A stretch of DNA of 29,819 nt from Polaromonas sp. Its GTDB lineage: Bacteria; Pseudomonadota; Gammaproteobacteria; Burkholderiales; Burkholderiaceae_C. Location: positions 1 to 29,819 of the forward strand of contig JAYVDN010000214.1 in the NCBI GenBank assembly GCA_043749385.1. The letters are read 5' to 3'. Below, piece after piece: positions 24,498-27,923 of this stretch. Position 1 is the stretch's first letter. The number at the start of each line of letters is the position of its first letter. A program made the position numbers and the translations under genes. The notes under the pieces were generated by a model. The model did not search any database and was not told where the DNA came from. It worked only from the letters and a program-made list of their open reading frames with translations.

Positions 24498-25481
24498 CTA
24501 AGCCCGGCGCACGAGCAACTGCGCCGCTAATTCTAGCAAGGCCTGTGTAAAAGGGTTGTTTGGCAACAACGACAGCGTGTCAATTGCCCGCTGCGCCTCG
24601 TGCGCTGCCGCTTGCCGTGTGGCTTCCAAGCTGCCCGTCGCACGCACGATGTGCACCACTTGGTCGAGTTGGTCGATACCACCTGACTCAATCGCGTCCC
24701 GTACCAGCTGCGCTTGCGGGGGTGATGCGCGCTGCATGGCGATGATCAGCGGGAGAGTCGCCTTGCCCTCGCGCAGGTCGTCTCCCAGGTTTTTGCCCAT
24801 TTCCTGAATATCACCGTCATAGTCCAGCACGTCGTCAATCACTTGAAAAGCCGTGCCCAGGGCTTGCCCGTAGTTGGCGCAGGCGGCCTCCACTGCGGTA
24901 CTGCTGCCCGCTATCACGGCGGCCAAACGGGCACTGGCTTCAAACAATTTGGCTGTTTTGGAGCGAATCACCCGCAAATAACCAGCCTCATCCAGCGAAG
25001 CATCGTGCATATTCATCAGTTGCAGCACCTCACCCTCTGCGATCACATTGGTGGCTTCGGCCAGTATCTCCATCACCCGCATTTGGCCGCTTTCGACCAT
25101 CATCTGAAATGCACGTGAGTACAAAAAATCGCCCACCAACACGCTGGCGGGGTTGCCAAAAGCCTCATTCGCTGTCGAGCGCCCCCGGCGCAGGGTGGAT
25201 TCGTCCACCACATCATCGTGTAGCAAGGTAGCGGTGTGGATAAATTCCACGACAGCTGCCAAATTGAAACGCTGGCTCTGGGTATAGCCCAACGCGCCGC
25301 ACATCAAAAGCAACAGGGCGGGGCGCAGGCGCTTGCCACCGGCGGAGATGATATAGCTGGAGACCTGGCCCACCAGTGGGACACCGGAGTCGAGCCGTGC
25401 TGCAATGACCTTGTCTACCTCGGCCATGTCTTGGGCGATAAGTTGCAGGGCGGCTGTGGTGGCGTTGGAGGTAGCGGACAA
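24498..25481 (-). CDS. ispB: Octaprenyl-diphosphate synthase (polyprenyl synthetase)
   Basis: GGKRLRP, HTATLLHDDVVD (FARM), FQVIDDVLD (SARM), GKNLGDDLREGK. Start uncertain (TTG 25481 or a later ATG); a minus-strand TATAAT at 25522-25527 argues against 25562. Confidence 0.93.
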   Translation of the reverse strand: MSATSNATTAALQLIAQDMAEVDKVIAARLDSGVPLVGQVSSYIISAGGKRLRPALLLLMCGALGYTQSQRFNLAAVVEFIHTATLLHDDVVDESTLRRGRSTANEAFGNPASVLVGDFLYSRAFQMMVESGQMRVMEILAEATNVIAEGEVLQLMNMHDASLDEAGYLRVIRSKTAKLFEASARLAAVIAGSSTAVEAACANYGQALGTAFQVIDDVLDYDGDIQEMGKNLGDDLREGKATLPLIIAMQRASPPQAQLVRDAIESGGIDQLDQVVHIVRATGSLEATRQAAAHEAQRAIDTLSLLPNNPFTQALLELAAQLLVRRA

Positions 25482-25577
25482 AATATAAATCTTAGTTCGG
25501 AACACGGACAGGGTGGGCTTGATTATAGGAATACAGGCGGCCTCCGATTGCTGCTCACACATGTACTTCCAGCGAGT

Positions 25578-25606
25578 TTGTCAGTAACCGCTCACCATGC
25601 TATAAT
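25578..25606 (+). promoter_or_regulatory. sigma70 promoter for rplU-rpmA
   Basis: TTGTCA (25578-25583), 17-bp spacer, TG-c-TATAAT (extended -10, 25601-25606). Confidence 0.75.
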
Positions 25607-25668: not shown

Positions 25669-26313
25669 ATGTACGCGGTCGTAAAAACCGGTGGCAAACA
25701 ATATAAAGTTGCTGCCGGCCAAAAATTTAAAGTAGAACAGATCGCTGCGGACGTAGGCCAAGAGATTGTGTTGGATCAAATTTTAGCAGTCGGTAACGGC
25801 GCTGAATTATTGATTGGCGCACCTTTGGTCCCCGGCGCAGCGATTAAAGCCACCATCGTGGCCCATGGTCGTGGTGACAAGGTACGCATTTTCAAAATGC
25901 GTCGCCGTAAGCACTACCAAAAGCGCCAAGGCCATCGCCAAAACTTCACCGAGCTGTTCATTGCGGAAATCGCTGACGGCAAAGGTGGCGTTTTCAAAGC
26001 CGAAGCTGCTGCAGTCATTGCTGCTCCCAAGGCTGCCAAAGCTAGCCCCGTTGCTGGTCAAGACGATCTGGAAATCATCGAGGGCATCGGCCCCAAGATG
26101 GCCCAGGTGTTGATCGACAATGGCGTGATCACCTTTGCGCAAGTAGCTGCAGCCTCGGTCGATGAACTGACGGCCATGCTCAAGGCATCGGGCGGACGTT
26201 TCAGCTTGGCAAGCATTGCAACGTGGGCTGAACAAGCCGCGCTGCTGCGTGATGGCAAGATGGACGAGTTCAAGAAGCTTACCGACGAACTCGTCGGTGG
26301 CGTTCGTAAATAA
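25669..26313 (+). CDS. rplU: 50S ribosomal protein L21 with C-terminal helix-hairpin-helix extension
   Basis: aa 1-101 typical L21 ([14 protein letters not shown]...GHRQNFTE), then an Ala/Lys linker and [12 protein letters not shown]...TWAEQAALL; 214 aa in total. Confidence 0.95.
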
Positions 26314-26592: not shown

Positions 26593-26616
26593 GCAACTGC
26601 GAGGCGTTTGCCCAGC

Positions 26617-26647
26617 AAAGCCCCGCCTGTGCGGGGCTTTGTTTTTT
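26617..26647 (+). terminator. Intrinsic terminator after rpmA
   Basis: AAAGCCCCGC-ctgt-GCGGGGCTTT followed by GTTTTTT. Confidence 0.85.

Positions 26648-26741: not shown

Positions 26742-27923
<1,182 letters not shown>

Follow-up and report, generated by a model that had tools for sequence, protein, structure and literature searches.

Ribosomal proteins that continue through a linker into a helix-hairpin-helix (HhH) module are already known, being recorded in NCBIfam and CDD for the alphaproteobacterial L21 and S2. In NCBIfam, a related C-terminal module is found on the long L21 (PRK12278), on S2 (PRK12311), on NuoE (PRK12373) and on the phasin PhaH, which is the only relative in this module family with a reported activity. 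The C-terminal HhH domain of PhaH from Caulobacter crescentus binds DNA non-specifically (PMC13052382, citing Salinas et al. 2023), and the protein keeps PHB granules on the nucleoid (PMC13052382). Two more relatives have been described in photosynthetic core complexes: the C-terminal compact domain of protein-O is invisible in the RC-LH1 map and its function was called obscure (PMC12079452); that of Urf1/protein-3h is also invisible in the map, is cleaved off in an Ala/Pro linker, and its function was again called obscure (PMC13066640). Our literature searches returned nothing relevant on an HhH-extended L21 (matches to the BL21 strain swamped the term 'bL21'), on the alphaproteobacterial or Rhodobacter L21 extension or its cryo-EM, or on DUF4332.

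Here we analysed an extended rplU gene in a stretch of 29,819 nucleotides, hereafter called the window, which belongs to a MAG of 748 contigs and 77% completeness (G000). The gene order at the locus is the canonical one, namely ispB(-), rplU, rpmA, obg, and the following features were located in it:

25578..25606, strand +: candidate sigma-70-like promoter of the rplU-rpmA operon, TTGTCA-17-TATAAT with TG extension, 11/12 of the consensus, by pattern match only
25669..26313, strand +: rplU open reading frame, 214 aa, without internal stop
26311..26313, strand +: rplU stop codon, TAA
26332..26592, strand +: rpmA (bL27), 18 nt 3' of the rplU stop, in the shared operon
26614..26643, strand +: intrinsic terminator 3' of rpmA, a 13-pair stem followed by a T run
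26760..27923: obg, last in the gene order given above

The genome gave one L21 match, i.e., rplU is there in single copy. Ribosomal_L21p (PF00829) matched aa 1-101 over the entire profile (positions 1-99 of 99; E 8.5e-38, 129 bits against a cut-off of 27), and TIGR00061 scored the product at 118.7 bits, above its cut-off of 43.7. The core shares 80-83% identity with the short L21 of Hydrogenophaga, Acidovorax and others, in agreement with an earlier sequence-only reading of this DNA, which had described it as a normal betaproteobacterial L21. The open 113-aa extension reported in the same reading proved to be real, as the 214-aa frame runs through without internal stop and the quoted motifs are present in it. 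The gene is the native single rplU, and its product consists of a bL21 core, assembling into the 50S subunit, and of the extension that follows. As to the neighbouring ispB, its open reading frame (window 24498-25562 (-)) encodes 354 aa from the ATG, of which the N-terminal ~25-30 aa are not present in all relatives, whose IspB ranges from 322 to 364 aa; the real start codon in the window may be located further inside.

The extension spans 25972..26313, corresponding to aa 102-214 plus the stop (113 aa), and the whole protein can be divided into the following parts:

25669..25971, strand +: bL21 core, aa 1-101 (Pfam, TIGR00061; AF2 beta fold with pLDDT 82-89)
25972..26001, strand +: conserved start of the extension, aa 102-111, with an AF2 strand at aa 108-110; genus-wide, and kept in G015
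26002..26061, strand +: Ala/Lys/Pro-rich linker, predicted to be flexible, aa 112-131; pLDDT <50 over aa 113-128, indel-rich
26062..26310, strand +: helical module of predicted (HhH)2/SAM-like fold, 83 aa, aa 132-214 (AF2, HHH_5)
26068..26112, strand +: canonical helix-hairpin-helix, L-x-x-I-E-G-I-G-P-K-x-A-x-x-L, aa 134-148 (Pfam HHH on aa 131-149)
26182..26202, strand +: second, degenerate Gly-rich hairpin, K-A-S-G-G-R-F, aa 172-178, between model helices 3 and 4
26224..26295, strand +: helix with W-x-x-Q-A...D-G-K and extra C-terminal helix, aa 186-209, the mark of the module subtype

The HHH_5 profile (PF14520) recognised aa 133-169 with 32.4-33.9 bits against a cut-off of 27 (E values 1.4e-7 and 4.6e-8), and the description of the extension as a linker plus an HhH module was thereby upheld. 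The further label 'DUF4332-like' fits less closely: while HHH_5 was above its cut-off, DUF4332 (PF14229) remained borderline, just below 23.2 bits, with 20.9 bits for the whole protein and 23.0 for the extension alone, in an alignment spanning only profile positions 52-119 of 122. When 21 full-length relatives, down to 55% identity, were aligned (alignment A1), the residues E138, G139, G141, P142 and K143 of the HhH hairpin were invariant, as were G175 in the second hairpin, where K172 and F178 are almost so, and W186, Q189, A190, L192, D195, G196 and K197 downstream; the linker varied in length and was rich in indels. The AF2 model based on A1 predicts an L21 beta core whose last hairpin is prolonged by the strand at aa 108-110, a linker with pLDDT <50 at aa 113-128, and a helical domain with pLDDT 82-86. 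A model of the module alone (alignment A2) reached a pLDDT of 90.7, with five predicted helices, and 15 module columns are invariant across 23 sequences, down to 44% identity. The second Gly-rich hairpin (aa 172-178) can probably be counted as an HhH hairpin. The module has a pI of 4.6 here, in a family that ranges from pI 4.6 to 6.9 and in net charge from -5 to 0.

The fold of the modelled domain was compared with known structures. By Foldseek, its first 60-65 residues resembled the RadA/Rad51 N-terminal domain (TM 0.57-0.59, 30% identity), and the (HhH)2 matches overall reached TM 0.55-0.59 over 61-65 residues with Foldseek E >= 0.16, no match to the PDB being found at E <= 0.001. VIA-align gave only generic HhH/SAM folds: the HhH region of POLQ scored Z 7.7 and the (HhH)2 domains Z 6.1-6.3, values that lie within common helical arrangements. 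NusA AR2 and SAM domains were among the best fold matches (Z 5-6.3), and AF1548 was also found among the (HhH)2/SAM-like ones. These matches of a predicted fold are too weak for a function to be transferred. The search of the ESM Atlas gave only clusters named 'DUF4332/HHH_5 hypothetical protein', with scores <0.9.

To describe the selection acting on the protein, dN/dS was calculated pairwise between the window and 14 related loci. The core gave 0.02-0.1, rising to 0.22 against L016, the most distant locus, the linker 0.3-0.5 within the genus, and the module 0.07-0.19. The module is, at these values, under purifying selection and is therefore translated, which contradicts the possibility, left open by the sequence-only reading, that the extension is not translated. 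As far as substitution patterns tell, then, the extension is both translated and selectively maintained. The same architecture was present in >120 clusters at 90% identity, and the JGI annotation is that of a plain L21.

Two codon regimes were observed within the rplU frame (window 25669-26310). The core has a GC3 of 0.51, with AT-ending codons and a within-genus dS of 0.2-0.28; the module has a GC3 of 0.67, genome-typical codons and a dS of 1-1.7, resembling obg, and rpmA falls between the two with a dS of ~0.5. A later origin, an allele exchange or a weaker codon selection on the tail may be behind this split.

In the genus of the window (NCBI label Polaromonas sp.), the extension is the majority state, inherited vertically with later deletions. 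It was found in 12 of the 18 other species of the GTDB genus, including G005 and G007, in which it is visible in part, at contig ends. Among the others, L21 has 105 aa in G009, G011 and G017 and 123 aa in G015, it is cut by the contig end in G018, and no match was obtained in G003 (82% complete). When 300 genomes spread evenly over the family were sampled, full-length matches came from 11 genomes of 8 of the 201 genera; G178, a genome of this sample flagged as unpublished, counts just as one among numerous short-form rows. The extension had been called unusual for its lineage, and this is correct for the family, with 8/201 genera, but not for the genus itself, in which it is the rule and vertically inherited; the same two levels answer the objection, foreseen in that reading, that it could be widespread in the family by vertical inheritance.

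Sixteen other families of the order, at one genome each, showed no extended L21, and neither did the 24 genomes of the same order within the phylum sample; in the marker tree, however, L019, L022 and L024 are placed outside the family. These three belong to the 12 extended loci (L013-L024) found among the best 80 of a scan of GTDB species genomes, with record titles of Polaromonas, Variovorax, Rubrivivax, Burkholderiales or Betaproteobacteria MAGs. Several extended-locus MAGs bear the isolate prefixes OTE or VAR, which we take to indicate glacier-fed stream samples.

Some deviating alleles were observed in the same scans. In L018:2506-3405 (JANPNT010000502.1, a 3.5-kb MAG contig), the rplU stop reads TAT rather than TAA and the frame continues into rpmA, giving a 299-aa L21-linker-HhH-L27 reading that may be a genuine triple fusion or may stem from an error in sequencing. 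L044 and L060, both from MAGs, and L136 (G036, from another family of the order) encode an L21 of 116-120 aa with a short Ala/Pro/Glu-rich tail, from which the HhH module is absent; at aa 96-98 they have the Leu-Phe-Ile that is common to the extended forms too. These tails may be relics of a loss or a separate type of tail.

The short alleles in the genus of the window were compared with the extended ones at the DNA level, and turned out to be clean in-frame deletions. The allele of G015 (L111, 123 aa) has retained 10-14 residues from the start of the extension and a few codons from its end, and those of G009, G011 and G017 (L108, L109, L110) end directly after the Gly-Lys at aa 104-105; no remnant of the module was found before rpmA in the truncated alleles, and rpmA begins after 12 nt. 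In a species proxy tree built on Obg, IspB and L27 from the same loci (75 rows), the three 105-aa alleles fall inside the genus, adjoining the lineage of the window. By this comparison of alleles, the short L21 of G009, G011, G017 and G015 are secondary losses. The extended forms are scattered over the proxy tree, in which the starred branches force >=8 changes.

The tree of the L21 core (94 columns) rejected a single clade of extended forms (AU p 5e-5), and most cores grouped with their short-form neighbours. Thus, the L21 cores are native, and the view that the extension was added onto the native gene was confirmed by the same test. The modules, instead, were of two types: type A, found in the window's genus, g182, g206, g84 and L016, and the more divergent type B. 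A wider module tree included the modules of 29 non-L21 proteins, of two membrane-anchored paralogs and of L21 from other classes. In this tree type A was monophyletic (99/94) and lay within a set of modules from multi-module proteins, and the alpha- and gammaproteobacterial L21 modules formed a distant clade (100/99). A single clade of all L21 modules was rejected (AU p 0.014), so that the Burkholderiales fusion is most likely independent of the alphaproteobacterial one, as far as the trees can tell; a common origin of the Burkholderiales types A and B was not rejected (p 0.158). The sequence-only reading was right that other classes of Pseudomonadota, too, have a long L21 ending in a related module, since such genes were found in 8 of the 400 genomes sampled outside the order, but to take the alphaproteobacterial module as the same fusion does not hold: it is shorter and of another subtype, and the fusion is most likely a parallel one.

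Within type A, the module tree was star-like, with the modules of other genera nested among those of the window's genus, whose monophyly was not rejected (AU p 0.096). The nucleotide identity of the modules was 71-84% whatever the taxonomic distance. For the cores, it was 94-96% among the close congeners of the window and 85% to the divergent G001; between most genera it was 68-80%, and 85-87% to g182. A recent transfer of the module across genera was sought, and no cross-genus pair exceeded 84% module nucleotide identity. Type A may have spread by cassette transfer, or its pattern may result from repeated loss. No module paralog that could have been an in-genome source was found in G000 (77% complete). 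A separate observation regards g182, whose cores (L094/L014/L021, titled Variovorax sp.) are inside the clade of the window's genus (100/97) in the core tree, while its Obg+IspB+L27 markers fall elsewhere, with L098; this hints at a whole-gene exchange of rplU between g182 and the window's genus, or at a poorly settled marker tree.

The module family is much larger than its ribosomal members. A HMMER search with aa 122-214 as query (E <= 1e-3) matched 6781 representative proteins, many of them with 2-19 tandem copies and no other recognisable domain. A sequence profile search of the PDB found chain O of 8YY9 (aa 160-233, E 3.5e-7), which is protein-O from the RC-LH1 of Dinoroseobacter shibae, and Urf1/protein-3h of Rhodovulum sulfidophilum (9WQV chain a, E 2e-4). 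The module is not modelled in 8YY9 or 9WQV, and no solved structure of it was found.

A membrane-anchored paralog of 169-192 aa was observed in some genomes; it starts with one TM helix, which a low-complexity linker connects to a module of the same subtype. It occurs in G008, G013 and in G223 of g206 (L161:1517-2026 (-), L172:1480-2058 (-), L162), its gene always adjoining an OmpA-like gene 3' of hscA-fdx, and was not found in G000, G011 and G052. Two of the 18 genomes of the genus contain it. An obligatory pairing of the L21 module with this paralog was ruled out, the gene being absent from most carriers.

What the module does on the ribosome can be approached by analogy. The role that we tentatively put first, with a likelihood slightly short of even, is that of a flexibly tethered, low-affinity anchor to nucleic acid or to the nucleoid on the 50S subunit. 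In published 50S structures bL21 and its C-terminus are solvent-exposed. The core would fix the protein to the large subunit, on its solvent side; the linker, with about 20-30 Ala/Lys/Pro residues predicted to be disordered, would let the module sweep a wide radius, and the module, perhaps aided by the linker lysines, would weakly contact nucleic-acid backbones independently of sequence. By analogy with PhaH, the likeliest ligand would be double-stranded DNA, and ribosomes, or free 50S subunits, would be held with low affinity at the nucleoid or at nascent transcripts. As to its evolution, the native rplU of Burkholderiales received its module from a promiscuous family, and the fusion has been kept in most species of the genus and deleted in a few.

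Several traits are consistent with such an anchor: the canonical GIGPK hairpin, the other conserved, Gly-rich hairpin with K172 and R177 at its flanks, conserved G/K/R at both hairpins, the lysines of the linker, the (HhH)2-like predicted fold, and the homology with the DNA binder PhaH over aa 111-170. On the other hand, beyond the linker the PhaH match extends over just half of the module, the first, and the fold matches are middling (E >= 0.16; Z <= 7.7), with SAM and protein-docking HhH domains scoring similarly. In its charge, which is acidic to neutral, the module resembles NusA AR2, a binder of proteins, and differs from typical DNA binders. Moreover, related modules sit on membrane complexes (Urf1/protein-O), where they are invisible or cleaved in cryo-EM (PMC12079452, PMC13066640). 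Non-specific binding of nucleic acids, as claimed in the sequence-only reading, has in its favour the analogy with PhaH only (PMC13052382), and against it the pI of 4.6. In addition, the module is dispensable, having been lost in four species of the genus, of which G011 encodes no further copy.

The acidity of the module leaves room for a docking onto proteins, which we regard as the less likely role. In this case an acidic HhH/SAM-like domain would recruit a partner to the ribosome surface, such as a polymerase subunit or a chaperone, or would pair with another copy of itself, e.g., that of the membrane paralog. Docking agrees with the pI range of 4.6-6.9, with the presence of SAM and of NusA AR2, which binds the RNAP alpha-CTD and SuhB, among the best folds, with the tandem arrays of 2-19 copies, with the occurrence of the module on unrelated large complexes, and with the membrane-anchored paralog of some genus members. 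However, the sole characterised relative binds DNA (PMC13052382), GIGPK is a canonical backbone-binding HhH, and the paralog, found in 2/18 genomes of the genus and absent from G052 and G000, is not an obligatory partner.

It is improbable, in our opinion, that the protein is cleaved after translation in its Ala/Pro-rich linker, to give ribosomes with a short L21 and a module that acts freely or is degraded. The Urf1 of Rhodovulum sulfidophilum, with the same layout, is cut in the linker and only its N-terminal fragment stays (PMC13066640), and the linker in the window is predicted to be disordered. By contrast, the cut in Urf1 may be a purification artefact, and strong purifying selection together with the recurrent fusion to L21 across classes favours the idea that the tethering itself matters. 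We give equally little credit to the idea that the extension is a nearly neutral passenger, i.e., a promiscuous domain at a permissive C-terminus without any function related to the ribosome. The patchy distribution (8/201 genera), the recurrent clean losses within the genus, and codon usage and dS of the module like those of ordinary genes (GC3 0.67 vs 0.51; dS 1-1.7 vs 0.25) would suit a passenger, but the dN/dS of 0.07-0.19 holds over long divergence with 15 invariant columns, the fusion to L21 recurred independently, and a 110% lengthening of a highly expressed protein would be costly for nothing. Finally, an artefact in which a missed stop or a frameshift joins rplU to a downstream gene is practically inconceivable and was excluded by the same frame in >120 independent clusters: nothing was found in its favour apart from the window being a fragmented MAG, the frame is equally continuous in complete or near-complete genomes, e.g., G008 and G052, and rpmA starts 18 nt past the stop, as in short-form operons.

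The anchor to nucleic acid or nucleoid can be extended to the whole family in a more speculative form, which we consider a long shot: the HhH module could be a general positioning tag, hitching large, slow assemblies to the nucleoid or to each other. If so, the tag would serve ribosomal subunits (L21, S2), complex I (NuoE), RC-LH1 (Urf1) and PHB granules (PhaH), and the position of ribosomes relative to DNA would be altered in Burkholderiales, for instance aiding the coupling of translation with transcription; such a role may help in cold freshwater habitats, to which many carrier MAGs trace back. Few known proteins are as conserved as the ribosomal ones, and a selected domain that doubles L21 points to a lineage-specific ribosome biology. 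The recurrence of the module on L21, S2, complex I, photosynthetic core complexes and a DNA-binding phasin makes the nucleoid or nucleic-acid tether a testable hypothesis, for which the sister species with clean deletions of the module are natural controls. The phenomenon is already present in annotation databases, and the carriers are mostly uncultured MAGs.

Among the known systems, in PhaH too a low-complexity linker leads into an HhH domain, and the protein tethers a large particle to the nucleoid (PMC13052382). Its profile (NF045508) matched aa 111-170 with 35.5 bits (E 1e-8) against the 250 bits that define the full-length protein, over profile positions 150-209 only; past the linker, the alignment ends halfway through the module, the N-terminal PHB-binding part is absent here, and the cargo is a ribosomal subunit instead of a storage granule. 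Urf1/protein-O and the long NuoE (NF009040; E 9e-11) have a homologous C-terminal compact domain and the same layout, in which a long Ala/Pro linker joins the module to an anchor; what serves as anchor is a transmembrane hairpin in Urf1/protein-O, a complex I subunit in NuoE, and bL21 here. The bS2 with an HhH tail (NF008966) shows a comparable plan on another carrier, with a weak profile match (E 1e-4). The RadA/Rad51 N-terminal domain and NusA AR1/AR2 come near, with the middling scores given above, to the predicted fold of the first 60-65 residues of the module; in sequence, nothing significant apart from the HhH motif links it with (HhH)2 domains (E 0.05), and the module here has a degenerate second hairpin and an extra C-terminal helix.

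A system of like architecture is the alphaproteobacterial long bL21 (NF008915/NF008916, PRK12278; 216-223 aa), likewise made of a core, an Ala/Lys/Pro linker and a C-terminal HhH. The two profiles align to the L21 of the window over aa 1-193, which scored far below their equivalog cut-offs (135 vs 281 bits and 133.4 vs 193); the profile search for the long form at genome level also remained below the cut-off, with 123.4 bits. The alphaproteobacterial L21 modules seen were of ~55-65 aa, without the last helix, and in their separate clade (100/99). On sequence grounds, the module of the window is of another subtype, and most likely of another origin, than that of the alphaproteobacterial L21. 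What is new at this locus is, thus, an 83-aa module subtype with an extra helix on a betaproteobacterial core, most likely acquired independently.
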